The notes below the pieces were generated by a model. It saw nothing but the letters and a program-made list of their open reading frames with translations, was not told the DNA's origin and did no database searches. The translations under genes and the position numbers were made by a program. Shown piece after piece: positions 1 to 16,894 of a stretch of 26,522 nt of DNA (the first letter of the stretch is position 1; every line of letters begins with the position of its first letter). Source of the stretch: Pseudomonadota bacterium (GTDB taxonomy: Bacteria; Pseudomonadota; Gammaproteobacteria; Burkholderiales; Burkholderiaceae_C); the NCBI GenBank assembly GCA_046046715.1, contig JBJOJH010000206.1, positions 1 to 26,522 of the forward strand, written 5' to 3'.

Positions 1-25
1 GTGGAGTAAAACCGCCCCGCCTTTG

Positions 26-60
26 CATAAAAAAACGACCTTCGGGTCGTTTTTTTTATG
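26..60. terminator. Bidirectional intrinsic (Rho-independent) terminator
   Basis: CAT-A7-CGACC-[TTCG]-GGTCG-T8-ATG. GC stem closed by a cUUCGg tetraloop, with a T-tract on both strands. Lies 64 nt past the stop of the minus-strand MipA gene. Confidence 0.9.
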
Positions 61-124
61 ACCAGCTGGGGAGAACCATGGGAAAAATTGCCCATCTTGG
101 TCAGAAAGGCGCGTTCGGCGCAAC

Positions 125-925
125 TCAAAATGCGTAGCCAAGCGACAAGCTGCCAGAAACACTTTGTGGGCTCGTGACGATGGGGCTATTCCTTGCATCG
201 CCGACCAAACTGCTGGCCTTCAGCCCACCGGTGACAGAAATGTTTGGCGTGAGCTGGTAGCTCAGATTCACGCTTGTGCCCACATCGCGTATGCCGGCAG
301 CGGGTGTATACGCCGCGTGCCCACTCTGTTGTGACTGCGCTGCGCTCACGCCAAAGTACGACTGCATGTATTGCGAATTGGCCCAGGTGGTGGACACCCC
401 CCAATCCAGACGCCACTTGGGTGCGATGTCTAGGGTGTAATTCGCGCCGAAGTTGGCGGTCGCGCCCTCCCCTGCATCGCCAGACCCGTATCGCAGCACC
501 GAAGAGAGACGCAAATTGCGGACTGGCTCGTAATTCAAGAACGCGCCATATTCCACCTTGGAAGCGATGCTGCCCATGCCGGCAAGGGCACCCGTGGCGC
601 TTTCCTTTCGACCCAAGTCCAGGCCCAAGCCTAGGCCATATTGCAGGGCCCGATCCTTGGAAAAGTTGTAGCCCACGCCACGGTTAGTTCCTGCAAACCA
701 GCCATTGGCCCATTGGTATTCAAGCGCGGGCATGACGGAAGCCCTTGGTCTATCACTGTCTGAATTGTCTGCATTGGTGGAGACCGAGAGGCTCACTCTT
801 CCACCTTCTCTGGCGGGATCGGGTCCTGTGAAATCCCCCTCGTCTGAAGACTGAGCAGTAGCCAGCGATGCAAAGCTGAAGGCAATAAGAAAAAGTGAGG
901 TGTTCTTGGATGGGTAATGAGGCAT
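125..925 (-). CDS. MipA/OmpV family outer-membrane beta-barrel protein (266 aa)
   Basis: N-terminal signal peptide (LFLIAFSFASLATA|Q), alternating aromatic/Gly beta-strands, family-typical YMQSYFGVS segment, and a C-terminal Phe (LGYAF) as BAM signal. Confidence 0.85.
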   Translation of the reverse strand: MPHYPSKNTSLFLIAFSFASLATAQSSDEGDFTGPDPAREGGRVSLSVSTNADNSDSDRPRASVMPALEYQWANGWFAGTNRGVGYNFSKDRALQYGLGLGLDLGRKESATGALAGMGSIASKVEYGAFLNYEPVRNLRLSSVLRYGSGDAGEGATANFGANYTLDIAPKWRLDWGVSTTWANSQYMQSYFGVSAAQSQQSGHAAYTPAAGIRDVGTSVNLSYQLTPNISVTGGLKASSLVGDARNSPIVTSPQSVSGSLSLGYAF

Positions 926-997
926 GGTGGTGTCAAGGAGTGAATAGAAGAGGTCAAAAAAAGTGCGCCTATAGGGATGGCTCGTCTTGGGGGTTGT

Positions 998-2089
998 TCA
1001 CCCCATGGCCCTCTGGAGAAACCAGAAGGCGCCCAAAGCGATCGAGCCATAGGAGGCCAGGCGGGTAGCTTTGACGAGGCCCGCAAGCCCGCTCACTTGA
1101 CGTATGCCATGCATCACCAGTGCAGCAAATAAAGCCAGGGCAATCTGCCCCAGTTCAATGCCAGCATTGAAGCCTGCCAAGCTCAAGACCCGGCCTAGGC
1201 CATTTAGGCCCAAGTCGCTGAAGGCACCGGCGAGACCCAGCCCGTGAATCAAGGCGCAAGCGAAGACCAGGCTCAGTCGGATAGACAGCGGATGCTTTAA
1301 GCGGCGATGCGCCGACCAGCGGTCAAACACAGCCATGCCCACGATGGTCGCGGCAATGGCGGGTTCGACCAGGCTGGACGGCACCGTCAAGCCGTACCAC
1401 ACACAGGCCACCAGCGTCATGGCGTGACCCGCTGTGAAGCAAGTGAGAGCCAGCACCACCTGGCGCAGGTTCCATGCCGCAGCCAGCACCACCAGCAAAA
1501 ACAGCAGGTGATCCGCACCCGACAGCACATGGAACGCGCCGAGCCGGACTTGCTCAGAAAAGGTGACCCAGACCGAGGGCAACACAGCCCCCTGCGGGTG
1601 CTCCGGTGTCAGCGTGATGAGCTGAGATTGGGCACCCCGCGTGACCGAGATGTGCTCTGTTTGCTCCGCTGCGCGTATGCCAAACAAGCGCAATGAAAGC
1701 TTGAGTTCAGCGGCCTGCGCTGAAAGAGAAAAGCGTCCCAACACCACCAAGTGAGTAGATGGCGCAGAGGGGGTACTGTCAGGCGGTGCCGTGTTGAGCA
1801 TGACGCCTTCAAGTTCACTGTGCCCCTGGTCGCTTTCCAGTGCCACGCCCTGCTTGATTTGCGCCTCGATGCTTGCGCCATGAGCACGCAGTTCATTTGT
1901 TGATAGCAGGCCGTCGTGGTCGTCATCGAAGCCGGTCAAGGCCGATACTGGAAGCGACAGCACCATGTAGGCCCCATTGCCCACGATGTTTAGCGTTCCG
2001 TGCTGCGCCACCACCAGATGAGCATGGGCGGCTGACACCGCAGCCCATGCCAGCAGGCAGGCGAGCAGCCGCTGGCACAGGCGATTCAC
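998..2089 (-). CDS. HupE/UreJ-type (HupE_UreJ_2-like) membrane protein with N-terminal periplasmic domain (363 aa)
   Basis: Signal peptide ending AHA|H. Membrane domain with GAFHVLSGADHLLFL, CFTAGHAMTL and LIHGLGLAG motifs. The GTG start overlaps the YHYH stop (GTGA, 2086-2089). Confidence 0.82.
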   Translation of the reverse strand: MNRLCQRLLACLLAWAAVSAAHAHLVVAQHGTLNIVGNGAYMVLSLPVSALTGFDDDHDGLLSTNELRAHGASIEAQIKQGVALESDQGHSELEGVMLNTAPPDSTPSAPSTHLVVLGRFSLSAQAAELKLSLRLFGIRAAEQTEHISVTRGAQSQLITLTPEHPQGAVLPSVWVTFSEQVRLGAFHVLSGADHLLFLLVVLAAAWNLRQVVLALTCFTAGHAMTLVACVWYGLTVPSSLVEPAIAATIVGMAVFDRWSAHRRLKHPLSIRLSLVFACALIHGLGLAGAFSDLGLNGLGRVLSLAGFNAGIELGQIALALFAALVMHGIRQVSGLAGLVKATRLASYGSIALGAFWFLQRAMG

Positions 2090-3048
2090 AGACTGCCTTT
2101 CACGCAGCGCTGCAGGTGGGGGAAGGTATCAGTGGCGTAGTAGTGATAAATGCCATTGGGAAATTCGGGTGTGACGCCGGTCCGACCATTGCATTCGTCC
2201 AGATCGCCCAAGCCGGCCACGTATTCGTAGTCTTGCGTGAAGGTGCCCATCGCATAGGTCGTTGTGTCGGCTGGTCGATTGGCATCCGGCGTCGTCTTGG
2301 TGCGATAGCTGGACGCGACCACCTTCACCGCTGAGCTTGCGTCGGTTGCCACGGTGTAGCCATAGCGCGCGTAGATCGGAAAACCGTCAGCCGCCCAGCC
2401 AATCATGGTCATGGCCGGGTTTCCGTTGCTCAGCTTGGTGAGCAAGCCTTCTGGAATCCCGTGGTAGTGATACATGCCGTTGGGCTGCACGTGCGCGTTG
2501 TTGTCGTCCGTTCCCCACTTGAAGAATGTCTGGCCCATGGCCTCCAGATTCCAAGTGCCCAAAGACGGTCCCCCTTGTTGACAAATTCCCGTGTCACTGC
2601 AAGTACCCGCTGTTCCTGGGTCAAAGACGATGCCATTCAAAGCGATGCCAGGCTTGTCCATGGGGCCGACACGCGGCGTGACGACCGAAGTCGCGGTAGG
2701 TGTCAAGGTCACAGAGGCCGAGATGTTTTGTGCAGAGATGGTGTTGGGGTTGTCGGGGTTGGGGAATGTGCCCACGGCGTGATCTGGCAGGCCATTGGCC
2801 GTGATGGAGCGCAGTGTGCTGCTGCATGACCAGGTCGCCGTGGCGGTGGCATTGACCGACGCAGAACTATTGAACGCACTGGTGGCGTAGCCGCAGAGCA
2901 CGCCAGCCGTGCTGGTGCCCGTGGTGGTCGTCGTGGAATCACCGCCGCCGCCACATGCGGTCAACCCGAGCCCGGTCAGAATGGCTGCGGCGACCACTAA
3001 TAGGTGAGCATGGCGATGGCTAGACGAAAAGCTTTTAAACGTGTTCAT
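2086..3048 (-). CDS. YHYH-domain lipoprotein (320 aa)
   Basis: Lipobox LTAC followed by a Gly/Thr linker. Motifs DDNNAHVQPNGMYHYHG, IGWAADGFPIY, GDLDECNG and GIYHYY are typical of the YHYH family. Six further Cys residues. Confidence 0.88.
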   Translation of the reverse strand: MNTFKSFSSSHRHAHLLVVAAAILTGLGLTACGGGGDSTTTTTGTSTAGVLCGYATSAFNSSASVNATATATWSCSSTLRSITANGLPDHAVGTFPNPDNPNTISAQNISASVTLTPTATSVVTPRVGPMDKPGIALNGIVFDPGTAGTCSDTGICQQGGPSLGTWNLEAMGQTFFKWGTDDNNAHVQPNGMYHYHGIPEGLLTKLSNGNPAMTMIGWAADGFPIYARYGYTVATDASSAVKVVASSYRTKTTPDANRPADTTTYAMGTFTQDYEYVAGLGDLDECNGRTGVTPEFPNGIYHYYATDTFPHLQRCVKGSL

Positions 3049-3098
3049 GATGTTGTGATGTTGGTTGTGTTGTTTAAGGCCTGAGATGCATGCGTCTG

Positions 3099-3176
3099 CT
3101 ATTTGCTGGCATAGGCAAAGCGTTCCGTTTCGCTCACCATGCAGTCCTGGTTGGTGTCGGCCGGGGTTTTATCGCC
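3099..3176 (-). pseudogene. In-frame EF-hand-like coding remnant directly after the stop of the 99-aa protein
   Basis: Reading on past the TAA at 3179-3177 gives GDKTPADTNQDCMVSETERFAYASK-stop (TAG 3101-3099). DTNQDCMVSETE (3158-3123) fits the 12-residue EF-hand loop pattern except Cys for Gly at position 6 (TGC vs GGC). Confidence 0.45.
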
Positions 3177-3476
3177 TTACTGCTTGGGCGTTGTAGGACC
3201 GCCTGGAGGTGGGCCTTTGGGCTTGCAGGCCAGTGGCTTGCCTTCGGGGGCCCAGCATGTGCCAGTCACTGTGCCTTGCGGAGATGCAAAGCTGCATTCG
3301 GTGCCACTGCCAAGTGCCTTGCACGATGCCAGCGCCTCGGCGGGCGGTTTGGGGGGGCCGCCCTTGCCATCGGTGGTCTGAGCCGAAAGAGCGCAGCAGG
3401 CGGTCAAGGCGACGCAACAGAGGGTCAGGCTCATCACGCGGCCTAGGGGCATGGTCAAAATCTCACTGGCTTTCAT
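3177..3476 (-). CDS. Small exported Pro/Gly-rich protein with four conserved-looking Cys, unknown function (99 aa)
   Basis: Start placed at ATG 3476, which has GGAG 7 nt upstream (CCTGGAGTAAACCC-ATG). Hydrophobic signal region, then GGPPKPPAEALASC-x8-C-x12-C-x9-C-KPKGPPPGG. It is the 3' part of the 258-aa track ORF. Confidence 0.8.
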   Translation of the reverse strand: MKASEILTMPLGRVMSLTLCCVALTACCALSAQTTDGKGGPPKPPAEALASCKALGSGTECSFASPQGTVTGTCWAPEGKPLACKPKGPPPGGPTTPKQ

Positions 3477-3559
3477 GGGTTTACTCCAGGTGTGTCGGCA
3501 AGCACCTGCGTTGCCGTGCCTGTAGTGTGAAAAATCAATGTGGTGAAAATATGAGCAAG

Positions 3560-3584
3560 TCCTCACAATCTCTCCACAATTGCG
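3560..3584 (+). promoter_or_regulatory. Tandem direct repeat, candidate response-regulator (BaeR-like) binding site
   Basis: TCCTCACAA (3560) and TCTCCACAA (3571) repeat with 11-bp period in the divergent intergenic region. TCTCCACAATTG resembles the E. coli BaeR consensus as I recall it (TCTNCANAA); verify against the literature. Confidence 0.5.
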
Positions 3585-3613
3585 TGGCCCAATGACCCTA
3601 AAAGCCAGCAGAC

Positions 3614-5080
3614 ATGCGCCTTCGACTTGCCCACACCCAAGCCCTTCTTTTGCTGTCGGCCGTGTTGCTGACGGTGCTTTGTATGGGGACCTTGAATGCG
3701 TGGAATCTGCGCAATGGCTTCTCCGACTTTTTGGCCAGCCGCGACGTCGAGCGACTTGAGACATTCGCAGCCCTGGTGTCAGAACGGGCCGAAGTGGCGG
3801 GCGGTCTGGACGCCTTGGCTGCCCAAGGTGTGGATTTGCACTTGCTACTGCGAGAATTTGGCCGGGCGCAGGGGATTCTTCCGCGCGAGTTTTTGCCACC
3901 CCGCATCCCCGGCCCAGGACCCAGAGGCTTCTTCGCTCCGCCCCCACCGCCACCCCCGCACATCGACAGCATTGATGCCTTCAAGGACCGGGTCGCGCTC
4001 TATGCCCCCAATGGCCAAGCGCTCTTAGGCAAAACGCTCCCGCCCGACGTAGGCGCTCATGTGGAAAGGCCTGTGTATGTGCAGGGCAAAGCAGTCGCGG
4101 TGATGCACATGCAGAAGCTCAAACCGGTGCCGGATGATGTGGAGGTCCGGTTCCTGACCTCGCAGTACCAAAGCATCGTGGTGGTGTCTGCTGTACTGTT
4201 GTTGGGCGCATGGTTGATTGCCCGATGGCTGGCCAGCCACTGGGTACGCCCGCTGTTAGAAATACAGGGCGCCACCCAACAGATTGCGCAGGGGGCGTTC
4301 GACACGCGGCTGAGTACGCGCCGGGCGGATGAGATTGGGGACACCATGCGCAACATCAACCGCATGGCAGAGGGGCTACAAGCCCTGGAGACCTCACGTC
4401 GCCGGTGGATTGCTGATATATCGCACGAACTTCGCACCCCCCTGACCGTGCTGCGCGGTGAAATCGATGCGCTGATGGAAGGCATCACTGCGATGTCGCC
4501 ACAGGCCCTGCTATCGCTGCGCGAAGAGGTGCTACAACTCAATGCACTGGTCGACGACCTGCACCTGCTGGCCATGGCGGATTTGCGGGCCCTGCCCTGC
4601 TACTTTGAAGACATCGACGCGGTTGCGCTGCTTGAAGGTATCGTGCAGCGCTTTTCACTGCGGGCGAGCCAACAAGGCTTGACCCTACGATGGGAGGGCA
4701 AGCCCACGACGCCGTTGGCGGTGCGCTGGGATGCAAAACGCATCGAACAACTGCTGGGCAATGTGCTGGACAACAGCTTGCGCTACACCGACGCACCTGG
4801 GCAAGTGGTGGTGCAAATTCAAAGCGACAACACCCGCGCCATCATCAGTATTGAAGACACGGCTCCTGGCTTGCAGCTTGACGACCTGACACGCATTTTC
4901 GAGCCCCTGTACCGGGCAGACCGCTCAAGAAGACGGGATGCGGGTGGCAGTGGCCTCGGACTGGCCATCTGCCAACACATTGCCCTGGCCCACCACGGCC
5001 TCATTCGGGCAGCAGAGTCCCAAATGGGAGGAATTCAAATTCTCATCGAGCTGCCCTTGATGGGAGACGTTGCAGCATGA
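3614..5080 (+). CDS. Sensor histidine kinase, BaeS-like (488 aa)
   Basis: Two TM segments, HAMP (DEIGDTMRNINRMA), H-box DISHELRTPL, N-box GNVLDNSLRY, EDTAPG, and G2 box GSGLGLAI. Confidence 0.93.
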   Translation: MRLRLAHTQALLLLSAVLLTVLCMGTLNAWNLRNGFSDFLASRDVERLETFAALVSERAEVAGGLDALAAQGVDLHLLLREFGRAQGILPREFLPPRIPGPGPRGFFAPPPPPPPHIDSIDAFKDRVALYAPNGQALLGKTLPPDVGAHVERPVYVQGKAVAVMHMQKLKPVPDDVEVRFLTSQYQSIVVVSAVLLLGAWLIARWLASHWVRPLLEIQGATQQIAQGAFDTRLSTRRADEIGDTMRNINRMAEGLQALETSRRRWIADISHELRTPLTVLRGEIDALMEGITAMSPQALLSLREEVLQLNALVDDLHLLAMADLRALPCYFEDIDAVALLEGIVQRFSLRASQQGLTLRWEGKPTTPLAVRWDAKRIEQLLGNVLDNSLRYTDAPGQVVVQIQSDNTRAIISIEDTAPGLQLDDLTRIFEPLYRADRSRRRDAGGSGLGLAICQHIALAHHGLIRAAESQMGGIQILIELPLMGDVAA

Positions 5081-5763
5081 CCACAGAAGCACCCAGCCGT
5101 GTGCTGGTCGTGGAAGACGACCGAAAGATATCGGAGCTGCTGCTCAACTATTTGCGAGCACAAGGGTATGAAGCGACGGCTGTCCACGATGGCCGTGTCG
5201 CGGTACAACACATTTCACAAACGCAGCCCGATGCCATCATCCTGGACTGGATGCTGCCGGGTCTGGAGGGTATCGGAGTCTGCAAGGCAGTACGCGCGTT
5301 CAGCGATGTGCCAATCCTGATGTTGACGGCGCGCGTAGATGAGCTGGACCGTTTGCTTGGCCTGGATACTGGCGCCGATGATTACGTTTGCAAGCCTTTT
5401 GCACCGCGCGAGGTGGTGGCTCGGGTGCGCGCTCTGCTGCGCCGGGCTGGCGGCAAACCTAAGACGTCGCCCACACCTTGGGTGGTGGAAGACGCATCCT
5501 TCCGTATCAGTTGGCTGGGCCAGTGGCTGCCTTTGACCCGGATTGAATTCATGATGTTCAGAACCTTGCTGTCGCGCCCAGGGCGGGTCTACTCGCGCGA
5601 CCAGTTGCTGGCGAGCGTGCATGACAGCCAACGAGACATCAGCGACCGGGCGATCGACACCCATATCAAGAACCTGCGCAAGAAGATTCAGGCAGTAGAA
5701 CCCGCAAGTGACTGCATTGCCTCGGTCTATGGGATTGGGTACCGGTTTGATCTACCTGAGTGA
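5077..5763 (+). CDS. OmpR/PhoB-family response regulator, BaeR-like (228 aa)
   Basis: Receiver domain (VLVVEDD, ILDWMLP phospho-Asp, CKPF) plus winged helix (DRAIDTHIKNLRKK, VYGIGYRF). ATGA overlap with the kinase stop. Confidence 0.94.
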   Translation: MTTEAPSRVLVVEDDRKISELLLNYLRAQGYEATAVHDGRVAVQHISQTQPDAIILDWMLPGLEGIGVCKAVRAFSDVPILMLTARVDELDRLLGLDTGADDYVCKPFAPREVVARVRALLRRAGGKPKTSPTPWVVEDASFRISWLGQWLPLTRIEFMMFRTLLSRPGRVYSRDQLLASVHDSQRDISDRAIDTHIKNLRKKIQAVEPASDCIASVYGIGYRFDLPE

Positions 5764-5807
5764 TGGCTATGCTTTAGAGAAGATCTTTTTCATTTGCCTG
5801 AAAACGC

Positions 5808-5816
5808 TGGCATGCT
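5808..5816 (+). promoter_or_regulatory. Candidate extended -10 element (TGn-CATGCT) for the LysE gene, leaderless geometry
   Basis: TGG-CATGCT is followed by exactly 6 nt and then ATG 5823. No Shine-Dalgarno sequence. Confidence 0.4.
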
Positions 5817-5822
5817 CGGCAC

Positions 5823-6473
5823 ATGTCACTATTTTCTGATGCAGGCTCACCCCTGGTGGGCGTTTTTATGCAGGGCTTGGCCCTGAGTTTGGGGCTGATT
5901 GTGGCCATAGGCGCGCAGAACGCGTTTGTGCTGCGTCAGGGCCTGCGTCGCGAACATGTGCTGGGCGTCGTGCTCTTTTGTGCGGTGGCCGATGCCTTGC
6001 TGATTACAGCGGGTGTGATGGGCATGGCCCAGGCGCTAGGCGACCGTCCGGCATTGGCGCGTGCGCTGGCTCTGGCCGGGGCGGTTTTTTTGGCGGTCTA
6101 CGGATGGCAGGCGCTCCAACGTGCACGGAGCTCAGGCCAATTGACTGCGGCTGAGGGCGGTGAGGGCCTGAGCCTGACAGCAGCATTGGCCCAGGCGGCG
6201 GGCTTCACCCTGCTCAACCCGCACGTTTATCTGGACACGGTGCTGCTCGTGGGCAGCATCGGTGCGCAGCAGCCCTCTGCTTTGCAAGGCTGGTTTGTGG
6301 CTGGCGCAAGCACCGCCAGCCTGCTGTGGTTTGGACTGTTGGGCCTGGGCGCACGCTGGCTGGTGCCCTGGTTTCGCCGGCCCAGGGCATGGCAGGTGCT
6401 GGATGGCCTAATCGGCCTGACCATGTTTGTGCTGGCGACCCTGTTGTTGCGCCACGCGATGAACGGCCTTTGA
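5823..6473 (+). CDS. LysE/ArgO family amino-acid exporter (216 aa)
   Basis: LIVAIGAQNAFVLRQG, TLLNPHVYLDT, ASLLWF and PRAWQVLDGLIG motifs; highly hydrophobic. Confidence 0.92.
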   Translation: MSLFSDAGSPLVGVFMQGLALSLGLIVAIGAQNAFVLRQGLRREHVLGVVLFCAVADALLITAGVMGMAQALGDRPALARALALAGAVFLAVYGWQALQRARSSGQLTAAEGGEGLSLTAALAQAAGFTLLNPHVYLDTVLLVGSIGAQQPSALQGWFVAGASTASLLWFGLLGLGARWLVPWFRRPRAWQVLDGLIGLTMFVLATLLLRHAMNGL

Positions 6474-6504
6474 GGTTTGACAAATGGCCCACGCGGAAGT
6501 TGAT

Positions 6505-7272
6505 TCACGGCATGGCAGACCGCCACACCATCAGCCCCCCGATCAACACCGGCTGATGGAGCATGTAGTAACTCAAACTCCATCGCCCCAGTCGGGCCAG
6601 CTGGGTCTGTAAGGGCCAGTGCTGCCCGGTGCGCACGTATGAGGGATAGTGCCTCAAGGCAACCGGCGCCATAGCGGCGCCCCACCACATTACGCCCAGC
6701 CAGGGCAGCAAGGGCACGTAGTCTTCGGTGATGGGTTTTTGGCTGATCAGACCCAGCCAGTTGTAGGCCTGGCCATTTAGCAGCTGAAGTGCTGGCCAGT
6801 GCTGGTGCAACACGGGGGCCAACTGAGCTGCCGTTACGGCCAGGGCCCCTGCCAGCCATAGCCATGCGCCCCAGGCTGCCGTCAGGCGCACCACGATCAG
6901 CATCAGCGCCATGCCGTGCAACACCCCAAAGTAGATGTAGCTTTTGGGGTACATCCACCACGACGCAGCGGTGACCAAGCAGGCGCACAGGGCAATTTGC
7001 GCCCAGCGCCGCCAAAAACGCGGCCAGCTCTGGCCTTGCGCCACGGCGATGGCTTGGCCAGCACCCGCGCACAGCAAAAACAGGCTGACGATGGTGGTGC
7101 GCTGCCAGGTCCAGAACGGGTCGGCATAAAAGTTTTGATGCAAATAGCCGAACTGATTCAGATCAAACGAGGCATGAAACACCGTCATCCAGACCATGGC
7201 GATGCCGCGAATGGCGTCCAGGCCATCCATACGTTCGGTTGCTTGCGGTGCGGGGACTTGATCACGGGGCAT
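6505..7272 (-). CDS. DUF1624 / heparan-alpha-glucosaminide N-acetyltransferase-like membrane protein (255 aa)
   Basis: RMDGLDAIRGIAMVWMTVFH, FLLCAG, IYFGVLHG, DYVPLLPWLG and LGRWSLSYYMLHQP motifs. ATG 7272 preferred over the track TTG at 7290. Confidence 0.85.
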   Translation of the reverse strand: MPRDQVPAPQATERMDGLDAIRGIAMVWMTVFHASFDLNQFGYLHQNFYADPFWTWQRTTIVSLFLLCAGAGQAIAVAQGQSWPRFWRRWAQIALCACLVTAASWWMYPKSYIYFGVLHGMALMLIVVRLTAAWGAWLWLAGALAVTAAQLAPVLHQHWPALQLLNGQAYNWLGLISQKPITEDYVPLLPWLGVMWWGAAMAPVALRHYPSYVRTGQHWPLQTQLARLGRWSLSYYMLHQPVLIGGLMVWRSAMP

Positions 7273-7288
7273 GCGGTAACGATACCGC
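7273..7288 (-). promoter_or_regulatory. -10-like hexamer (TATCGT) inside a perfect 6-4-6 palindrome, candidate promoter/operator
   Basis: GCGGTA-ACGA-TACCGC abuts the ATG at 7272. On the minus strand TATCGT (7284-7279) is 6 nt before the ATG. Confidence 0.4.
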
Positions 7289-7308
7289 AATGCACCCCGG
7301 CAGGGTCG

Positions 7309-8598
7309 TCAAGGACCTAGCGACCGCAAGGGTCTCGGGGCGTCGAAACTGCCCGCAGACAAGGCAGACTGCAAAAACACCACGGGGCCGTCATTGACGA
7401 AGATATCGGTCAGCTGATCACCATTGGCATCGCCCAGCGCCAGGAAGTTGGCACCCATGGGCCCCTCCAGCCGTTGATAGACCGAAAACTGGCCACGCTG
7501 CGTGCGCGATTGCAACACCACGCTGATGTAAGACGGCAGGTTTTGCGCCTGGTACACCAAAGAAATCGCCGCAAGATCGGGCAGACCATCGGCGTTCAGG
7601 TCTGCGATGGCGACCTGGCGGGCACCATCGGGGAGGGGCAGTGTGGTGGAAGCAAACGCCCCGGGCGCCGTTTGCCGCAAGATGCTCAGGCTGGCCCCAC
7701 CCGTGCCACCGCTGGCGGCGTTGCCTGCATTGGCAGCCACGATGTCGGCTCTGCCGTCACCGTCCAGGTCGGCAACGGCCACGCCATGCACGTCGAGGCC
7801 GGCGCTCATCACCAATGCGGGGCCAAAGCCACCCAGGGGCAACTGATAGAACACCACCACGCTGTCGGTGGCGGCCAGCACGACGTCGTTGCGTCCGTCG
7901 CCGTTCAGGTCGTGGGTGACGACGGTTCTGGATCCTCTGAGGCCGCCAGTTACAAGGACGTCTGGTGCAGCATAGGTGCCAGGCAAGGACGAATTTTGTA
8001 CGTAAACCAATGCGCGAGCATTGGCCAAAACACCGTCGGCCACCACCAGATCTGCCAGCGCATCGTTGTTCAGATAGGAAATGGCAGCATGCTGGGCTGC
8101 GCCGCCGGTCGCGAGCCACACACTGGGGAGAAAACGACCAGGATCAGACGGGTTTTGCACCAGCAGGGACACGCCGCCGCTGTCGCTGCTCGCGCCCACT
8201 TGCACCGGCAAACTGGCAGGGGTGGCCACTACCAGGTCGAGCCACCCGTCACCGTTCAGGTCCCCCGCACCCAAGCCCCAGGGGTCGGGTCCCACGGCGT
8301 ACTGCTGCGGTTCCCCGAACAGACCGGGTGCGGTTTGCAAATACACCTCCACCACGCCCGGATGAGGTGGTTCACCGGCGACCAGGCTAGACGCCAGCAT
8401 CACATCGTCCAGGCCATCCCCATCCAGGTCTTTCACCACCAGCCCTGCGGGCACTCGGTAAGAGAGCGAGGTGGTGCCCGGCTCGCCTCCACCAGAACCA
8501 CAGGCCCCCAGCAGCAGCGAGCACGCAACGAACAAGACTCGCCAGAGGGCTGCTATGGCGTGGGATGTGCCTTTGTGGCGTAGCCGGTGTGGTGTCAT
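7309..8598 (-). CDS. FG-GAP/VCBS-repeat beta-propeller lipoprotein (429 aa)
   Basis: Lipobox LGAC. Seven repeats: DLDGDGLDD, DLNGDGWLD, YLNNDALAD, DLNGDGRND, DLDGDGRAD, DLNADGLPD, DANGDQLTD. ATG 8598 preferred (track ORF starts at 8643). Confidence 0.87.
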   Translation of the reverse strand: MTPHRLRHKGTSHAIAALWRVLFVACSLLLGACGSGGGEPGTTSLSYRVPAGLVVKDLDGDGLDDVMLASSLVAGEPPHPGVVEVYLQTAPGLFGEPQQYAVGPDPWGLGAGDLNGDGWLDLVVATPASLPVQVGASSDSGGVSLLVQNPSDPGRFLPSVWLATGGAAQHAAISYLNNDALADLVVADGVLANARALVYVQNSSLPGTYAAPDVLVTGGLRGSRTVVTHDLNGDGRNDVVLAATDSVVVFYQLPLGGFGPALVMSAGLDVHGVAVADLDGDGRADIVAANAGNAASGGTGGASLSILRQTAPGAFASTTLPLPDGARQVAIADLNADGLPDLAAISLVYQAQNLPSYISVVLQSRTQRGQFSVYQRLEGPMGANFLALGDANGDQLTDIFVNDGPVVFLQSALSAGSFDAPRPLRSLGP

Positions 8599-8604
8599 CC
8601 GCAG

Positions 8605-8613
8605 AAAGTAGCA
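8605..8613 (-). promoter_or_regulatory. Candidate extended -10 element (TGn-TACTTT) for the FG-GAP gene, leaderless geometry
   Basis: Minus strand reads TGC-TACTTT-CTGCGG-ATG, with 6 nt between hexamer and ATG 8598. Confidence 0.5.
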
Positions 8614-8718
8614 CCGCGACGTGTGGTGGGTGTTGAGCGGCATCTATTGCGCTGCGTTTTGACGGTTTTGGCGCTGGCCCATGCGCTTTTTTGCACGTAC
8701 AGGCAAGCAACGCTGCGC

Positions 8719-8724
8719 CATACT
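8719..8724 (+). promoter_or_regulatory. Candidate -10 element (CATACT) for the P-type ATPase
   Basis: CATACT lies 8 nt before ATG 8733. No strong SD. Confidence 0.3.
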
Positions 8725-8732
8725 GGACCGCC

Positions 8733-11408
8733 ATGACCGACAAGCACCAGCACGCCGGAGACGACAAGTCAGCCACGACGCCACCCCACCAGATCGAGGC
8801 GCAAGCCTTGGCGCGGCAGCTGGGGGTAGATCCCGCTCGGGGTCTGAGCACTGCACACGCCGCCACGCGCCTGCAAGAGCACGGTCCCAACCGCCTTCCG
8901 GGTCCTGTCCCGAGGTCTATGGCGGCCCTGCTGCTGGCCCAGTTTCGAGACTTCATGATCGGCGTTCTGCTGGCGGCCGCCCTGGTGTCAGGGCTGGTGG
9001 GTAAGTGGGTGGACATGCTGGTGATCGTGGTGATTGTGGTTCTCAACGCCCTGATCGGTGTTGCCCAGGCCTGGCGTGCCGAGCGCGCCATGGCGGCACT
9101 GCGCATGCTGGCCCAGGCACAAGCCACGGTCATGCGCGACGGAATGACCAGCACGCTGGACGCCGAGGCGCTGGTACCCGGCGACATCGTGTTGCTGGAC
9201 GCGGGCTGCCAGGTTCCGGCCGACCTGCGTTTGCTGGAGGTGGTTCAGCTTCACGTAGACGAATCTGCCTTGACCGGTGAGTCCGTCACGGTGCCCAAGG
9301 TCAGCGACGTTTTGGCAGAGGACGCGCCCACGCTCGGGGATCGGCTGAACATGGCCTACAAGGGCACCTCGGTGACGCAGGGCCGTGGCCGGGGTGTGGT
9401 TCTGGCCACCGGCATGAGCACCGAATTGGGCAAGCTGGCGGGCTTGCTGGCGCAGGACAGTGAGCGCAGCACGCCGCTGCAAAAGCGCTTGGCTGCGCTG
9501 GGCCAGCGCATGGCGTGGGCGGTGATGTTCATTTGCGCTCTGGTGTTTGCCGTGGGCGTGCTGCGGGGCGAAGGCCCCTTGCACATGATTTTGGTGGCCG
9601 TCAGTCTGGCTGTTGCTGCCATCCCCGAGGCCCTGCCGGCGGTGGTCACCGTGTTGTTGGCCCTGGGTGCCCACAAGATGGTGGCGGTGCATGTGCTCGT
9701 CAAACGGCTCTCGGCGGTCGAAACCCTGGGCTCCGTGAGCATCATTTGCACCGATAAAACCGGCACGCTCACCCAGAACCGCATGCACGTAGAGCACATC
9801 ACCACGGCCGATGGGCAGGATCATGATCTGAAGGGCTGGCAGCCGGATGTGCAGGGGCATGAGCTCTTGCGGGCGGTGACTCTGTGCAACAACGCTCAGC
9901 CCAGCGCAAACGGCTCCTGGCAGGGTGACCCCACCGAGACCGCCCTGGTCGACGCCGCTCACAGCCTGGGCCTGAGCAAGCTGGCCTTGGACGACGCGCA
10001 TCCACGGGCGCACGAGCATGCCTTTGACGCCAGCCACAAACGCATGAGCACTTACCACCCGGCACCAAGCGGCTATGTGCTTTACACCAAGGGCGCGCCG
10101 GAGGCTGTCATCCCACTTTGCCATGAGGTTTGGTCACCCAGCGCGCCTTTGCCCCTGCATGCGGCACAGTGGCTGGAGCGAGCCGACGCCATGGCGCAAA
10201 GCGGCCTGCGCGTGCTGGCGGTGGCACGCATGGCACTTCCCACGCTACCGGACGATCCCAACCCGGCCGTCGCCTCCAAGGGCCAGATGCAGCTCCTCGG
10301 GCTGGTCGGCATGATGGACCCGCCGCGCCCAGAAGTGGTGAAGGCCGTGCAGTCGTGCCTGCATGCGGGTATCCGCCCCATCATGATCACCGGCGATCAC
10401 CCCGCCACGGCACTGGCGATTGCCCAGCGGGTGGGGATTGCGCCCACAGACGCAGCCCGGTCAAACCTGGCTGGACCTGTCATGACTGGCGCGGCGCTGG
10501 CGACCCTGGATGCCGCCGCACTGCAGGACCGGCTGGCCCACACCAGCGTCTATGCGCGCGTGGACCCGGCTCAAAAAATTCGCATCGTTCAGGCCTTGCA
10601 GGCCCAAGGACACTTCGTTGCCATGACGGGCGATGGGGTGAACGATGCGCCCGCCCTGCAGTGCGCGGACATCGGGGTGGCGATGGGAAAAGCCGGCACC
10701 GACGTGGCCCGCGAGGCCGCCAGCCTGGTGCTGCTGGACGACAACTTTGCCTCCATCGTGCGGGCGGTGCGCGAGGGGCGGCGTATTTACGACAACATCC
10801 GCAAGTTTGTTCGCTACGCCATGACCGGCAATTCGGGCGAGATCTGGACCATCTTTTTGGCGCCCTTGCTGGGTTTGCCCCTGCCCCTGCTGCCCATCCA
10901 CATCTTGTGGATCAATCTGGTCACCGACGGGCTGCCCGGCCTGGCTTTGGCGGCCGAGCGCGCCGAGCCGGGTGTGATGCAGCGCCCGCCCCGCCCTCCT
11001 GACGAAAGCCTGTTTGCCGGGGGGCTTTGGCAGCACGTGCTGGGTTTTGGTCTGTTGATGGGCGGACTGTGCCTGGCCGTGCAGGCCTGGGCGCTCAGCA
11101 GCCCGGCAACATCAGGCCAGGCACAGACCATGGTGTTTACAGTGCTGACCTTCTGCCAGATGGCCCATGTGCTGGCGATCCGGTCCGAGCGTGAGTCATT
11201 GATGCAGCTGGGCCTGTTCAGCAACCGGCCCTTGCTGGGCGCCGTGCTGATGACGCTAGCCCTGCAACTGGCCACCCTCTACATCCCCGTTCTGCAGCCC
11301 ATCTTCAAGACCGTTCCCCTGGGGGCCGCCGAGCTGGCCTTGTGCGTGGCAGCGGCAGGGGTGGTCTATGCGGCAGTTGAGCTGGAGAAGCTATGGCGCA
11401 GGCGATGA
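8733..11408 (+). CDS. Cation-transporting P-type ATPase, P2A (Ca2+-ATPase/SERCA-like) (891 aa)
   Basis: TGES, DKTGTLT phosphorylation site, KGAPE, TGD, TGDGVNDAPAL. Ion-binding helices TM4 IPEALP, TM5 TGNSGE and TM6 INLVTDG. ATG 8733 preferred over the track TTG at 8691. Confidence 0.92.
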   Translation: MTDKHQHAGDDKSATTPPHQIEAQALARQLGVDPARGLSTAHAATRLQEHGPNRLPGPVPRSMAALLLAQFRDFMIGVLLAAALVSGLVGKWVDMLVIVVIVVLNALIGVAQAWRAERAMAALRMLAQAQATVMRDGMTSTLDAEALVPGDIVLLDAGCQVPADLRLLEVVQLHVDESALTGESVTVPKVSDVLAEDAPTLGDRLNMAYKGTSVTQGRGRGVVLATGMSTELGKLAGLLAQDSERSTPLQKRLAALGQRMAWAVMFICALVFAVGVLRGEGPLHMILVAVSLAVAAIPEALPAVVTVLLALGAHKMVAVHVLVKRLSAVETLGSVSIICTDKTGTLTQNRMHVEHITTADGQDHDLKGWQPDVQGHELLRAVTLCNNAQPSANGSWQGDPTETALVDAAHSLGLSKLALDDAHPRAHEHAFDASHKRMSTYHPAPSGYVLYTKGAPEAVIPLCHEVWSPSAPLPLHAAQWLERADAMAQSGLRVLAVARMALPTLPDDPNPAVASKGQMQLLGLVGMMDPPRPEVVKAVQSCLHAGIRPIMITGDHPATALAIAQRVGIAPTDAARSNLAGPVMTGAALATLDAAALQDRLAHTSVYARVDPAQKIRIVQALQAQGHFVAMTGDGVNDAPALQCADIGVAMGKAGTDVAREAASLVLLDDNFASIVRAVREGRRIYDNIRKFVRYAMTGNSGEIWTIFLAPLLGLPLPLLPIHILWINLVTDGLPGLALAAERAEPGVMQRPPRPPDESLFAGGLWQHVLGFGLLMGGLCLAVQAWALSSPATSGQAQTMVFTVLTFCQMAHVLAIRSERESLMQLGLFSNRPLLGAVLMTLALQLATLYIPVLQPIFKTVPLGAAELALCVAAAGVVYAAVELEKLWRRR

Positions 11409-11414
11409 ATCGGC

Positions 11415-14400
11415 TCAGCCGACCCACTTGCGGGCGTTGTGCCACAGCTGCATCCAGGGGCTGGCCGCCTCCAGACCACCGGTTTGGGCCAGGTCGGTCC
11501 AGCTCATCTGGATGTTGCGAAACACGCGCTCGGGGTGGGGCATCATGGCCGTGAAGCGGCCATCGGCCGTGGTCACTGCCGTCAGGCCGCCCGGACTGCC
11601 GTTGGGGTTGAAGGGGTAACGCTCTGTAGCCACCCCCGCGTGGTCGGTAAAGCGCATGGCGGCAATGGCCTGGGCCGCGTTGCCACGGGCAGAGAAGTTG
11701 GCATAACCCTCGCCATGCGCCACCGCGATAGGCAAACGAGTGCCCGCCATACCGGCAAAGAACAGCGAGGGCGATGCCAGCACTTCCACCTGGCTCAGGC
11801 GGGCCTCAAAACGCTCGCTCTGGTTGGTGGTGAAGCGTGGCCAGGCGTCAGCGCCGGGGATGATGTCGGCCAGCTCGGCAAACATCTGGCAGCCGTTGCA
11901 AACGCCCAGGCCAAAGGTGTCTGTGCGGGCAAAAAAGGCCTTGAACTGGTCTGACAGCGCGGCATTGAAGGTGATCGACCGGGCCCAGCCGATGCCAGCA
12001 CCCAGGGTATCGCCGTAACTGAAACCGCCGCAGGCCACCACACCGGTGAAGTCCTGCAGGCGCGCCCGACCGGTTTGCAGATCGGTCATGTGCACGTCCA
12101 CTGCTTCGAAACCAGCTTGCGTGAAGGCGTAAGCCATTTCCACATGCGAGTTGACGCCCTGCTCACGCAAGATGGCCACACGGGGCCGCGACAGCGTCAA
12201 CGCGGGGGCCGCAGGCAACGCCGGCGAGACAGCAAAGCCGGCAGGCAGCACCACATGCAAACCAGGGTCGCCCGGCTCACCAGCGGCAGCGTGTTCTGCG
12301 TCTGCACAGGCCGGGTTGTCACGCAGCTGGCAAATCTTCCAGCTGGTGGCGTCCCACACCTGATGCAGGTCGGCCAGCTTGGCCGTGAACACGGCTTTGG
12401 CATCGCGCCAGACCTGAACCTCGCCCACGCCCGCCGTGATGGTCGAGTTGGCCGGGCGCGTCTTGCCGATGAAGTGGCTGTGCTTGCTCAAGCCGTGCTC
12501 GCGCAGGGTTTGCATGACTTCACTGCGCTCGGTGGTGCGTACTTGCAAAACCACGCCCAGCTCTTCAGTGAACAAGGCCTTGAGCGTGAGCTCCTCCCGG
12601 CGGGCGCTGACCTGGCTCGTCCAGTTCTTGCTGTCACCGTGCTCGGCCCGGCTGTCGCTGATGCCATCACCTTCGGTCACCAGCATGTCCACATTCAGTG
12701 CCACGCCCACATGGCCGGCAAAGGCCATCTCGCAAGCGGTGGCAAACAGACCGCCATCGCTGCGGTCGTGGTAAGCCAGAATCTTTCCCTGCGCGCGCAG
12801 CAGGTTGACCGCCTTGACCAGATTCACCAGGTCTTGTGGGTCGTCCAGATCGGGCACCTGGTCGCCAGTCTGCCCCAGGGTCTGGGCCAGCATGCTGCCG
12901 CCCATGCGGTTTTTGCCATGTCCCAGGTCGATCAGCACCAGCGTGGTGTCGAATTCTGCGTCCAGCTGTGGCGTGAGGGTGCCGCGCACATCGGCCAGGG
13001 TGGCAAAGGCCGAGACGATGAGCGATACCGGCGAAGTCACTTTTTTGGCTTGACCACTGGCATCGTCTTTCCACTGCGTGCGCATCGACAGGGAGTCTTT
13101 GCCCACGGGGATGGACACGCCCAAGGCCGGGCACAGTTCCATGCCCACGGCCTGGACCGTGGCGTACAGGGCCGCGTCTTCGCCGGGTTCGCCACAGGCT
13201 GCCATCCAGTTGGCCGACAGCTTGACGCGAGACAGCTCGATGGGCGCTGCCAGCAGGTTGGTGATGGCCTCGGCCACCGCCATGCGGCCGGAGGCTGGCG
13301 CATCCAAGGCCGCCAAAGGCGTGCGTTCACCCATGCTCATGGCCTCACCCGCAAAGCCTTGGTAGTCGGCCAGGGTCACGGCGCAGTCTGCGACCGGCAC
13401 CTGCCAGGGGCCGACCATTTGGTCGCGATGGCTCATGCCGCCTACGGTGCGGTCGCCTATGGTGATCAGGAATCGCTTGGACGCCACCGTCGGGCTGGCC
13501 AGCACCTGGATGGCGGCAGTTTGTAGCGCCACACCGGTGAGGTCGAGCGGCTTGAAGGTGCGCGCCACGGTTTTGACGTCGCGGTGCATCTTGGGCGGCT
13601 TGCCCAGCAGCACATCCATAGGCATGTGAACTGGAGCGTCCTGCTGGTCGTCACTCAGTACCAGCTGACGCTCTTCCGTGGCCACGCCCACCACGGCAAA
13701 CGGGCAACGCTCACGCTCGCACAGGGACTTGAACAGGTCCAGCGACTCGGGCGCAATGGCCAGCACGTAGCGTTCCTGGCTCTCGTTGCACCAAATTTCC
13801 TTGGGCGCCAGGCCGCTTTCTTCCAATGGTACGGCGCGCAAATCAAAGCGCGCACCACGGCCCGCATCGTTGGTCAATTCGGGGAAGGCATTCGACAAAC
13901 CGCCTGCGCCGACATCGTGGATCGCGAGGATGGGGTTGGCGTCCTTGCCCAGGTTCCAGCAGTGGTTGATCACCTCTTGCGCCCGGCGCTCGATTTCTGG
14001 GTTGCCGCGCTGCACCGAATCAAAGTCGAGCTGGGCCGCATTGGCGCCGGTTGCCATGGAGCTGGCTGCACTGCCCCCCATGCCGATGCGCATGCCCGGG
14101 CCGCCGAGCTGAATCAGCAGGCTGCCGGCAGGAAACACCACCTTGTGGGTCAGGTCTGCATCGATCACACCCAAACCACCGGCAATCATGATGGGCTTGT
14201 GATAACCGCGCTGCTCGGAGCTGTCGACACCCGCTGTGCTGCTGGCCACGCTTTGCTCGTATTCCCGGAAGTAGCCCAGCAGGTTGGGTCGGCCAAACTC
14301 GTTGTTGAAAGCAGCTCCGCCCAGGGGGCCTTCGATCATGATTTGCAAGGGGCTGGCAATGTGCTCGGGCTTGCCATAAACGCCCTGGTCCTGTGGCCAC

Positions 14401-15691: not shown

Positions 15692-16894
15692 ATGTTTCAG
15701 GAAATGATCTCGCATCGGGGAGCGCGTTTTGGGCTTGCATGTTTTGTTTTGGCGGCGTCAAGCATCGCGATGGCGGCCAAAGCTCCTCCCCCAGCACCAG
15801 CCACAACCTACACTTATAAGTGGTTGGGGGATCCTGAAAAAGCCGGCATCACCGTTCAAACCAACCTCAAGCCGAGTTTTGTGTTGATGGGCGGCGGTCC
15901 AGACGTGGATGAGGGATTCCGCTGGCTGATCAAAAAAGCGGGCATCACACCGGCCACGGGTGGCCGCCTGGTGGTGATACGTGCCACGGGTACGGATGCC
16001 TACAACCCCTACATTTATTACAGCGATGCCAGTTTGTCGCCCGACACATTGCCGGTGGATCAATGGGTGGGCGGTGCGCAAATGGGGCTGAGTTCTGTCG
16101 AAACTTTGATCATTCCTACCCGAGCTGCAGCCAATGACCTCAGGGTCAATCAATTGGTGGCCCGCGCTAATGTGGTCTGGATTGCTGGGGGCGATCAGAA
16201 AAACTACATTGAACAATGGAAGGGCACAGCGCTCGAAGACACCTTAAAGGCGCACCTGGTGAAAAACACGCCCATGGGCGGCACCAGTGCTGGCTTGGCC
16301 GTGATGGGGGCCTTTGACTTTGCCGCGCTCAAAGGCACGGTCACATCCCTGCAGGCGCAGGCCAACCCGTACAACACTTACATGACTTTGGACCCAAGCC
16401 CTTTAAGCAATGAAACGGGTTTTATCTCGCCCCTGGCTTTTAAAAACATCATTTTTGATTCTCATTTGGATGAGCGCGACCGCATGGGGCGCCTGATCAC
16501 TTTCATGGCCCGAGCGGTAGCACCCAATGGCACTACCGGTTGCGGCGGTGGTTATCTGGGTGAGACGGTAGTGCGAGGCATAGGTCTGGGTGTTGAAACG
16601 GCTCTACTTGTTGAAGGTGACGGTGCGGGTACCTACACCGTCCAGAGGCAGACCAATGTATCGACCACCAGCACCAGCGCAGCTTATTTCGTGAAATTAA
16701 AAGTTGCGCCCAGCGTGTGCCTCGCAGGTAAGCCTTTGAGCTTTCCCAGTTCAGCGGCGTTTGAAGTGCAAAGGCTAGACAAGACCGGAGCGTTTATCAA
16801 TCTGGACGCCAGCACCCTACCAGTGTTCTCCAGCGGAACCATCACCAACGGCGTCTTGTCCCCGGCCACTAGAAAAGGCGCGTTCAGCTACTGA
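15692..16894 (+). CDS. Secreted cyanophycinase-like serine peptidase (peptidase S51 family) (400 aa)
   Basis: SD AAGGGGGAAG, signal peptide (FGLACFVLAASSIAMA|A), VLMGGG, IAGGDQ, nucleophile GGTSAG, and DSHLDERDRMGRL with the cyanophycinase Arg pattern. Confidence 0.8.
   Translation: MFQEMISHRGARFGLACFVLAASSIAMAAKAPPPAPATTYTYKWLGDPEKAGITVQTNLKPSFVLMGGGPDVDEGFRWLIKKAGITPATGGRLVVIRATGTDAYNPYIYYSDASLSPDTLPVDQWVGGAQMGLSSVETLIIPTRAAANDLRVNQLVARANVVWIAGGDQKNYIEQWKGTALEDTLKAHLVKNTPMGGTSAGLAVMGAFDFAALKGTVTSLQAQANPYNTYMTLDPSPLSNETGFISPLAFKNIIFDSHLDERDRMGRLITFMARAVAPNGTTGCGGGYLGETVVRGIGLGVETALLVEGDGAGTYTVQRQTNVSTTSTSAAYFVKLKVAPSVCLAGKPLSFPSSAAFEVQRLDKTGAFINLDASTLPVFSSGTITNGVLSPATRKGAFSY

Follow-up and report, generated by a model that had tools for sequence, protein, structure and literature searches.

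Which of the genes around a YHYH-domain gene belong to it functionally, and can they reveal what the YHYH protein does? The exported YHYH domain (PF14240) is widespread, occurring in bacteria, phage tails, and diatoms; its fold is unsolved and its function only predicted. The question is raised by six genes at positions 125-5763 of the window, by which we mean the whole 26,522-nucleotide stretch of DNA analyzed here. The window is one entire contig (JBJOJH010000206.1) of a 73%-complete metagenome-assembled genome (MAG); its best matches place it close to Rhodoferax and other Comamonadaceae, and related sequencing runs originate from lake and fresh water. Four genes on the minus strand encode a four-cysteine (4-Cys) Pro-rich exported protein, a YHYH-domain lipoprotein, a fusion of a periplasmic domain to a HupE_UreJ_2 permease, and a MipA/OmpV-family protein. 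They face a two-component system (TCS) on the plus strand. All six genes, as listed in the original prediction, are confirmed by their open reading frames (ORFs) and Pfam matches. Here, we describe which of these genes form a conserved unit. The conserved partner of YHYH is the periplasmic domain of the fusion protein rather than the permease. This domain has the predicted fold of the metal-binding "anglerase" RbAng-1a (Franco Cairo et al., Nat Commun 2025, PMC12537917; PDB 9GCE) and is called Ang-like below.

YHYH and the Ang-Like Domain Form a Two-Gene Cassette

In the window, the YHYH lipoprotein (2086-3048, minus strand; 320 amino acids (aa); PF14240, E 4e-68; lipobox LTAC/GGGG) is encoded directly before the Ang-like + HupE_UreJ_2 fusion protein (998-2089, minus strand; 363 aa; PF13795, E 8e-34, residues 181-330 only). 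The YHYH stop codon and the start codon of the fusion gene overlap as GTGA (2086-2089), as had been noticed originally, and the identical 4-nt overlap is found in loci L004 and L083.

We compared 81 loci, 80 from species-representative genomes with YHYH relatives (46-85% identical) and one from a metagenome contig, in which the Ang-like domain was sought by a profile hidden Markov model. An Ang-like domain gene lies directly downstream of YHYH in 66 of the 81 loci. This immediate partner is fused to HupE_UreJ_2 in 33 loci, is free-standing with about 170-200 aa in 28, and is cut by the contig end in 5. The domain is encoded elsewhere in the locus in another 2 of the 81. Partner-bearing loci include, by record titles, Pseudomonadota, Myxococcota, Gemmatimonadota, and Bacteroidota, and several cassettes hold tandem YHYH paralogs. 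Carriers that can be cultivated are Limnohabitans sp. T6-5 (a 4-Cys gene, two YHYH genes, and the fused partner, with no TCS nearby), Sphingomonas aquatica LMG 28596 (TCS present), and, with a free-standing partner, Pseudoalteromonas distincta ATCC 700518 and P. phenolica. Since the Ang-like domain follows YHYH in 66 loci, 28 of them without the permease, it is the Ang-like domain that is conserved beside YHYH. The HupE/UreJ permease was considered for the same role and was rejected on account of the 28 loci with a free-standing Ang-like domain.

The permease is dispensable for the pair at the genome level as well. HupE_UreJ_2 was unmatched anywhere in two of the five genomes with a free-standing partner, both of them Pseudoalteromonas. 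It had been proposed that HupE supplies or removes the metal of YHYH. Because of the permease-free loci and genomes, this cannot be the general mechanism. Among 301 genomes of the order, a tally that takes in one unpublished genome (G294) on which no individual claim depends, YHYH occurs in 16 and HupE_UreJ_2 in 96, and the two are adjacent nowhere except in the window. A general link between YHYH and HupE_UreJ_2 was rejected on this count; the link is specific to these subfamilies. The Ang-like family is rare per sample and was found in 3 of 400 genomes of the class, the window's included.

The six genes had also been expected to co-occur as a unit. They do not, since MipA adjoins the cassette in 3 loci and the 4-Cys gene is present in a minority of loci. 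The related loci, about 85 in all, are a mosaic, not one fixed six-gene module. Loci without the TCS show no recurrent third partner. Their surroundings differ, with examples being a phosphodiesterase/sulfatase-like gene, GH3, a multicopper oxidase, and NUDIX.

The Ang-Like Domain Carries an N-Terminal Histidine and an EF-Hand-Type Loop

The periplasmic Ang-like domain (1565-2020, minus strand) comprises residues 24-175 of the fusion protein. The AlphaFold 2 (AF2) model of this protein has a mean predicted local distance difference test (pLDDT) score of 93, and its first 175 residues fold as a beta-sandwich. The top Foldseek match of the domain is 9GCE (E 5.4e-6, probability 1.0). In the VIA comparison, 9GCE gave a Z of 11.2 and an rmsd of 3.5 over 134 aligned residues, with 16% structural identity (span residues 27-171). 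The zinc-binding relatives ZrgA and PA4063 gave Z values of 9.9 and 9.2, respectively. The signal peptide appears to end in AHA/H24, a cleavage site inferred from the sequence, so that His24 would be the first residue of the mature protein. Of 64 aligned relatives, 63 have a His at this position, and the preceding Ala is kept in 61 of 62.

The second conserved feature is an EF-hand-type loop, DDDHDGLLSTNE, at residues 55-66 (nt 1892-1927) in the connector between beta2 and beta3. The loop has ligand-type residues at positions 1, 3, 5, 9, and 12, a Gly at position 6, and a hydrophobic residue at position 8, as in EF-hands. D55 and E66, at loop positions 1 and 12, are present in 67 of 67 sequences and are the only invariant residues of the Ang-like family; D59 (60/67) and G60 (55/67) follow. 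Calmodulin loops come up in searches with the family profile (E 1e-4). None of the Pfam EF-hand models reached E 0.01 with the window Ang-like protein, and the AF2 model has merely a short entering helix around the loop. The EF-hand-bearing family comprises 297 clusters at 50% identity (E up to 1e-30). Most of the best 150 clusters are free-standing, a share that is biased because the profile was built mainly from free-standing forms.

The permease domain scores 117 bits with PF13795, above the gathering threshold of 24.5 and below the 145-189 bits that are typical of matches in the order. The window permease is, judged by this low score, a divergent HupE_UreJ_2 subfamily. All 35 full-length relatives keep residues H187, D193, H194, H222, E242, H282, N308, E312, and Q315.

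The YHYH Protein Has an Invariant Set of His and Asp Residues

The window protein is a clear member of its family, with 229.6 bits for PF14240 (gathering threshold 25). The eponymous motif corresponds to Y193-H194-Y195-H196, of which H194 and H196 are invariant. Across 84 YHYH sequences, H90, D181, H186, H194, H196, D221, D273, D282, and D284 do not vary, nor do R80, R258, R289, and the Cys pair C286 and C315. The AF2 model has a pLDDT of 88. This model resembled no solved structure (Foldseek against PDB, E above 2; best Z VIA-wide, 2.3) and matched no reviewed Swiss-Prot entry of AlphaFold DB. The AlphaFold DB clusters contained only other YHYH proteins, some of them fused to EF-hand and Calx-beta domains.

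The view of YHYH as a His-ligated metalloprotein with a metal-handling partner, put forward when the locus was first read, is plausible from the invariant His and Asp residues, and both parts of it are found as earlier predictions in the literature. Iyer et al. (2021, PMC7824862) predicted a Zn2+ site formed by the His triad and an Asp and a hydrolase activity. The N-Zinclopedia preprint (2026) likewise gives an in-silico Zn-site and hydrolase prediction with His3(+Asp). The invariant His/Asp set found here agrees with these predictions. Complex prediction with YHYH residues 45-320 and Ang-like residues 24-180 gave a score of 0.07, which speaks neither for nor against binding.

YHYH is recurrently associated with ester hydrolases, namely members of the alkaline-phosphatase and metallophosphatase superfamilies. 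A YHYH domain is fused to a calcineurin-like phosphoesterase and DUF4214 in L059:7367-10825, and phosphodiesterase- or sulfatase-family genes adjoin YHYH at L020:11533-13692, L047:1109-2533, and L057:10961-12301. Genes observed next to YHYH include Lcl_C, sulfatase, phosphodiesterase, and Metallophos genes. YHYH is truncated (150-aa ORF) or uncalled at L086:9087-10118 and L087:8383-9409, with the downstream Ang-HupE gene intact. In these two metagenome contigs, which carry the full L004-type operon described below, YHYH may be pseudogenized.

A BaeSR-Like Two-Component System Accompanies a Subset of Cassettes

The TCS of the window consists of a BaeS-like sensor histidine kinase (3614-5080, plus strand; 488 aa; HAMP, HisKA, HATPase_c) and an OmpR/PhoB-family response regulator of the BaeR/CreB-like type (5077-5763, plus strand; 228 aa; Response_reg and Trans_reg_C). 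The two genes overlap as ATGA. We tested them against the NCBIfam BaeS/BaeR equivalogs (NF012163, NF007837, NF007982). The kinase scored 325 bits with BaeS_SmeS (NF012163; cut-off 500) and 279 with PRK10549 (cut-off 603). The regulator scored 271 bits with BaeR (cut-off 380) and 242 with CreB (cut-off 273). BaeS and BaeR are the best-scoring families and align over the full length, as the original label of a BaeSR-like TCS implied. The scores lie well below the equivalog cut-offs, so the sequences place the pair as BaeSR-like, not as BaeSR.

About 20 of the 81 loci have a kinase with full-length similarity (28-64% identity, sensor domain included) and a regulator within about 3 kb. These TCS-linked cassettes are found in Comamonadaceae and Sphaerotilaceae, Sphingomonadales, Halieaceae, Colwelliaceae, and one Myxococcota MAG. 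The TCS lies upstream or downstream of the cassette and on either strand, and the link spans at least five clades. When presence or absence of the TCS is mapped on a maximum-likelihood YHYH tree, at least eight changes are required, some of the absences being only short contigs. The linkage between TCS and cassette is, in support of the original proposal, non-random, given its recurrence across these clades and orientations.

A Direct Repeat in the Divergent Region Is a Candidate Regulator Box

The 4-Cys gene and the kinase gene diverge from a 137-bp gap (3477-3613) that was predicted at exactly this size with a tandem repeat and that contains two repeats. The direct repeat ATTGTG-N5-ATTGTG (3564-3580, minus strand; CACAAT-N5-CACAAT on the plus strand) is a candidate response-regulator box. 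Its 11-bp period is as expected for OmpR/PhoB-type regulators. The box is placed upstream of both divergent genes, 88-104 nt from the 4-Cys ATG and 34 nt from the kinase ATG, and it abuts a weak -35 region. In the 2.18-Mb assembly, the window site is the single exact copy. If up to one mismatch is allowed, the box fronts the first operon gene, which is 4-Cys or YHYH depending on the locus, in L004, L005, L008 (twice), L056, L083, and L084-L087. Two further loci have it as well: L012, close to the cassette, and L064, where it is upstream of 4-Cys. The search with up to one mismatch returned 27 matches, and about 6 are expected by chance. The divergent intergenic region as a whole is strongly conserved among close loci; the ATTGTG repeat alone reaches distant loci.

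The other repeat is an imperfect TTCAC...TTCAC with 16-nt spacing (3527-3547, minus strand; GTGAA on the plus strand), which is possibly the tandem repeat noticed originally. It is kept in the close loci L004, L084, and L086 and is not conserved in L005, L008, L056, and L083. Between this repeat and the 4-Cys gene, RNAalifold predicts a leader hairpin of the operon (3496-3516, minus strand) with 8 pairs, 2 of them compensatory, both in L084, in an alignment of only four loci. The hairpin could be a transcript stabilizer or an operator. A scan of window positions 1-6000 for sigma-70 promoters gave zero consensus sites.

Similar repeats were observed at further positions. A second exact ATTGTG-N5-ATTGTG is present at L004:14587-14603 (minus strand), downstream of a 520-aa gene of unknown function that follows MipA and ahead of the next gene; the regulator may have a second target there. 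Seven Pseudoalteromonas loci without a nearby TCS have a similar repeat, ATTGTGCAAATAGTGTG, in the opposite orientation upstream of YHYH. This repeat, ATTGTGCAnnnnnTGTG, has one mismatch and lies about 150-400 nt upstream of YHYH in L011, L014, L016, L022, L023, L026, and L029. The seven loci are related, so they are not independent evidence.

The 4-Cys Protein, MipA, and a Deletion in the Window

The 4-Cys protein (3177-3476, minus strand; 99 aa) is encoded by the first gene of the operon and was masked by a spurious 258-aa ORF extension. It has no match to a Pfam or NCBIfam family. Its family comprises about 110 clusters without a Pfam family, and a Protein Atlas search with the protein returned "hypothetical protein" clusters only. 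The invariant features are Q33, C52, C61, C74, C84, and the motif GTCWAPEGKPLACKP. Q33 is probably the mature N-terminus after the cleavage sequence ..SA/Q. A lipoprotein form was rejected, since the lipobox Cys is unconserved and the ..A/Q site for signal peptidase I (SPase I) is conserved. In loci with enough flank, the 4-Cys gene usually comes first opposite the TCS; L044, with no TCS within 10 kb, is the exception. The pairing is kept in loci that lack YHYH: L084 and L085 are arranged as TCS, 4-Cys, MipA, and an unknown gene, and L088 as TCS and 4-Cys. The 4-Cys protein therefore goes mainly with the TCS.

The MipA/OmpV-family gene (125-925, minus strand; 266 aa) encodes an outer-membrane beta-barrel protein and is well identified (PF06629, E 4.4e-43; 148 bits against a threshold of 24.2; profile positions 4-221 of 221). 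It adjoins the cassette solely in the window, L004, and L012. MipA was rejected as a core member on this distribution and is a lineage-specific passenger.

The closest full relative, L004, has the order TCS, 4-Cys, Lcl_C (DUF1566) lipoprotein, a 176-aa EF-hand protein, YHYH, Ang-HupE, and MipA. L086 and L087 resemble it; the EF-hand protein gene encodes 174-176 aa in L004 and L086, and EF-hand proteins are also present in L006, L007, and L009. In the window, the 128-bp spacer between YHYH and 4-Cys (3049-3176, minus strand) is a non-coding remnant of the 3' end of this EF-hand protein gene, as identified by alignment and tblastn. The spacer aligns with the 3' ends of the L004 and L086 EF-hand genes up to the YHYH ATG, with 71% in tblastn over 24 aa. 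From this match, the window is read as a deletion derivative that lost about 1.8 kb, including the genes for the Lcl_C lipoprotein and the EF-hand protein.

Operon Borders and Surrounding Genes

The minus-strand operon is closed by an intrinsic terminator (29-57, minus strand) that consists of an A-run, a 6-bp GC stem (ACGACC/GGTCGT), a CGAA loop, and a T-run. It folds at -25.8 kcal/mol with a z of -4.98, and none of 200 shuffles was equally stable, in line with the strong terminator that had been predicted. The internal gaps 926-997 and 3049-3176 gave no stable structure on folding (z about -0.1 to -0.2), in agreement with a single transcript. From the translational coupling, the zero internal terminators, and the one strong terminal terminator, the minus-strand genes look like one transcription unit, as originally suggested. 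None of the public RNA runs listed contained this DNA (share 0.00).

The G+C content is 0.56-0.61 over the operon and TCS (1-6000) and 0.62-0.67 across most of the remaining contig. The latter range excludes dips at 15-20 kb and applies to 6001-14000, where purL and its neighbors form a housekeeping stretch. Each related locus has different flanking genes, and in L086 and L087 the TCS is bordered by phage-like genes (Zot, AlpA, HNH). The low G+C, the variable flanks, and the phage-like genes together suggest that the module moves horizontally.

To the right of the TCS, the window encodes LysE, HGSNAT, FG-GAP, and P-type ATPase proteins, none of which matched a related locus by synteny. The FG-GAP repeat lipoprotein (7309-8643, minus strand) and the P-type cation ATPase (8691-11408, plus strand; Cation_ATPase_N and Cation_ATPase_C), a P2, Ca/Mg-type enzyme judged by its domains, lie 3-5 kb off the operon. 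The two genes show synteny with no related locus, and a tie to the EF-hand theme is unsupported. An exported protein (15692-16894, plus strand) has a weak Peptidase_S51 (cyanophycinase-like) match (E 2e-7); its gene lies upstream of map and glnD, where the G+C content is low.

Proposed Mechanism and Alternatives

We propose that the window carries a TCS-controlled envelope operon built around a metal-handling cassette of YHYH and its Ang-like partner, and we give this reading an even chance. YHYH would be an extracytoplasmic metalloenzyme that uses the conserved His90, His186, His194, and His196 together with several Asp residues. The Ang-like domain would be its dedicated periplasmic metallochaperone, capturing Cu, Ni, or Zn at the His1 site, and Ca2+ bound at the EF loop would perhaps gate or stabilize the domain. 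Where a permease domain is present, it would connect this metal pool with the cytoplasm. The operon would be switched on by the BaeS-like kinase with its regulator via the ATTGTG-N5-ATTGTG box, and the inducing signal would be an envelope or metal cue. By analogy with Spy and CpxP for Bae and Cpx, the 4-Cys protein may be a small periplasmic accessory of the signaling system, and MipA would be a lineage-specific extra. A stricter version, which is possible and rather doubtful, makes YHYH and the EF-hand Ang-like domain an obligate metalloenzyme system of two proteins outside the cytoplasm. A Ca-gated His-brace chaperone would load Cu, Zn, or Ni into an enzyme of unsolved fold, and the BaeS-like TCS with its 4-Cys partner would sense that metal or Ca2+.

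Several observations weigh against the operon as proposed. Thirteen of the 81 YHYH loci have no Ang-like partner; they are mostly from Bacteroidota and Marinimicrobia, and some lie beside sulfatases. Of the two foreign genomes with the Ang-like family among the 400, one has YHYH just upstream, and with only two such genomes the reverse linkage is poorly sampled. About 60 of the 81 cassettes are without a nearby TCS, partly owing to short contigs. L044 has a 4-Cys-like gene, two YHYH genes, and a fused partner with no TCS within 10 kb. Sequence homology to RbAng-1a was not detected: phmmer searches up to E 10 did not return 9GCE, and the best 60 matches of the Ang-like family profile are EF-hand proteins only, without 9GCE. 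The link of the Ang-like domain to RbAng-1a is one of modeled fold and of architecture.

The same proteins could instead form a metal-uptake relay. YHYH would then be the outer capture or release part, which for example binds metal or hydrolyzes a chelate at the outer membrane, and would hand the metal to the Ang-like domain and on to HupE/UreJ-2 for import, with induction by the TCS under metal scarcity, an enlarged form of anglerase uptake. The published model of Ang-HupE/UreJ-2 is one of capture and uptake (PMC12537917), the fused forms keep the permease motifs in full, and the structural relatives ZrgA and PA4063 come from zinc-import operons. Such a relay is nonetheless unlikely, since 28 of the 61 classifiable cassettes are without a permease domain, two of the five genomes with a free-standing partner have no HupE_UreJ_2 match at all, and neither a TonB-dependent receptor nor an ABC importer is recurrent in the neighborhoods. 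Calcium rather than a transition metal could be at the center. The EF loop would be functional, the partner would be a Ca2+-dependent regulatory or stabilizing subunit of a Ca2+-requiring YHYH hydrolase, the TCS would read Ca2+ or the envelope cation status, and the permease would be mainly an anchor. D55 and E66 are the sole invariant residues of the partner, with His24 nearly so; the conservation of His1 equals that of the EF loop, and this His is the proven metal ligand in the solved relative. Separate EF-hand proteins are encoded in the TCS-linked operons of L004, L006, L007, L009, and L086, with a remnant in the window, and among the YHYH proteins of AlphaFold DB are some fused to EF-hand and Calx-beta domains. 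The invariant residues of YHYH also include many Asp. The His-rich motifs of the permease speak for a transition metal, however, and Ca2+ sites of exported proteins are often purely structural. The P2-type cation ATPase and the FG-GAP protein 3-5 kb off would suit a calcium theme, but the window flanks are syntenic with no related locus. We consider the calcium module quite unlikely.

It is also conceivable that, beyond the YHYH-Ang pair, the TCS, 4-Cys, and MipA genes are independent envelope genes that rearrangement joined in a variable island, without common regulation or function. Gene content does differ greatly among the close relatives, that is, the window, L004, L084, and L086. The non-syntenic flanks, the phage-like genes that border the TCS in L086 and L087, and an operon G+C of 0.56-0.61, below most of the contig, would be expected of such an island. 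This explanation is improbable in the face of a TCS-cassette link that recurs in at least five clades with differing gene orders, a box that is conserved before the first operon gene whether this is 4-Cys or YHYH, and the lack of internal terminators.

Implications for YHYH and Anglerase Domains

The locus was first taken for a candidate undescribed module, and it is not wholly undescribed. The Ang-HupE/UreJ-2 architecture was published in 2025 (PMC12537917) and is already known, as is the predicted metal site of YHYH. The EF-hand-bearing, often free-standing Ang-like subfamily is new, and so is its near-obligate pairing with one YHYH subfamily. The proposed TCS control with its candidate box and the 4-Cys family are also new.

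A coupled partner with the fold of a Cu/Ni-binding family provides a concrete route to the function of YHYH. The 2025 anglerase concept is widened by a large EF-hand-bearing subfamily that is sometimes found in genomes without a HupE/UreJ-2 match. This suggests that Ang-like domains, at least in this subfamily, act as client-enzyme chaperones rather than for uptake. If the obligate two-protein version were true, it would provide PF14240, a family of bacteria, phages, and diatoms, with its first function, and anglerase domains would be enzyme-specific metallochaperones, not only uptake devices. The TCS, the candidate box, and the 4-Cys family offer a simple genetic handle on the inducing signal.

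Comparison with Known Systems

The earlier accounts of YHYH concern the same Pfam family, and their predictions cover phage-tail fusions or single models. Neither an Ang-like partner, TCS control, nor a lipoprotein form of YHYH is reported in PMC7824862 or N-Zinclopedia.

The closest described architecture is Ang-1-HupE/UreJ-2. RbAng-1a binds Cu and Ni via its N-terminal His in a mono-histidine brace, with a Kd of 74 nM for Cu and 220 nM for Ni, and anglerases are proposed to fish metal ions for the fused permease (PMC12537917). The neighbors given in that study are genes "of unknown function", DUF4198, indigoidine-A-like, and PfkB. YHYH is mentioned neither in the text nor in the supplements, nor are calcium and EF-hands. 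[quoted passage not shown] The window domain differs from RbAng-1a in having no detectable sequence similarity to it. The EF-hand-type loop of the window domain occupies the connector that gives RbAng-1a its second Cu ligand, Asn41, a placement by residue numbering only. Unlike Ang-1, the window Ang-like family is often free-standing and is tightly paired with a YHYH gene.

ZrgA of Vibrio cholerae (8F1B) and PA4063 of Pseudomonas aeruginosa (7BGO) are periplasmic zinc-binding proteins of zinc-import operons. They share the fold with the Ang-like domain, and, like its free-standing form, they stand alone and are thought to hand metal to a membrane partner. In contrast to the Ang-like domain, they have His-rich loops instead of a conserved His1, and they lack an EF loop. 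Their genes accompany those of ABC-type importers and are switched on in zinc deficiency, with PA4063 being Zur-regulated. Neither YHYH pairing nor TCS control is found in these systems.

On the regulatory side, the E. coli BaeSR system with spy and mdtABCD and the CpxAR system with cpxP offer the nearest parallel. In both, a small exported protein is a prominent target next to or within the regulon. The window TCS shares with them the order of kinase followed by regulator, the BaeS-like periplasmic sensor domain, and an OmpR-family regulator with a direct-repeat box. The window box differs from the published BaeR box, and no efflux pump is present. The small protein of the window is a disulfide-type 4-Cys Pro-rich peptide, whereas that of BaeSR and CpxAR is an LTXXQ helical protein.

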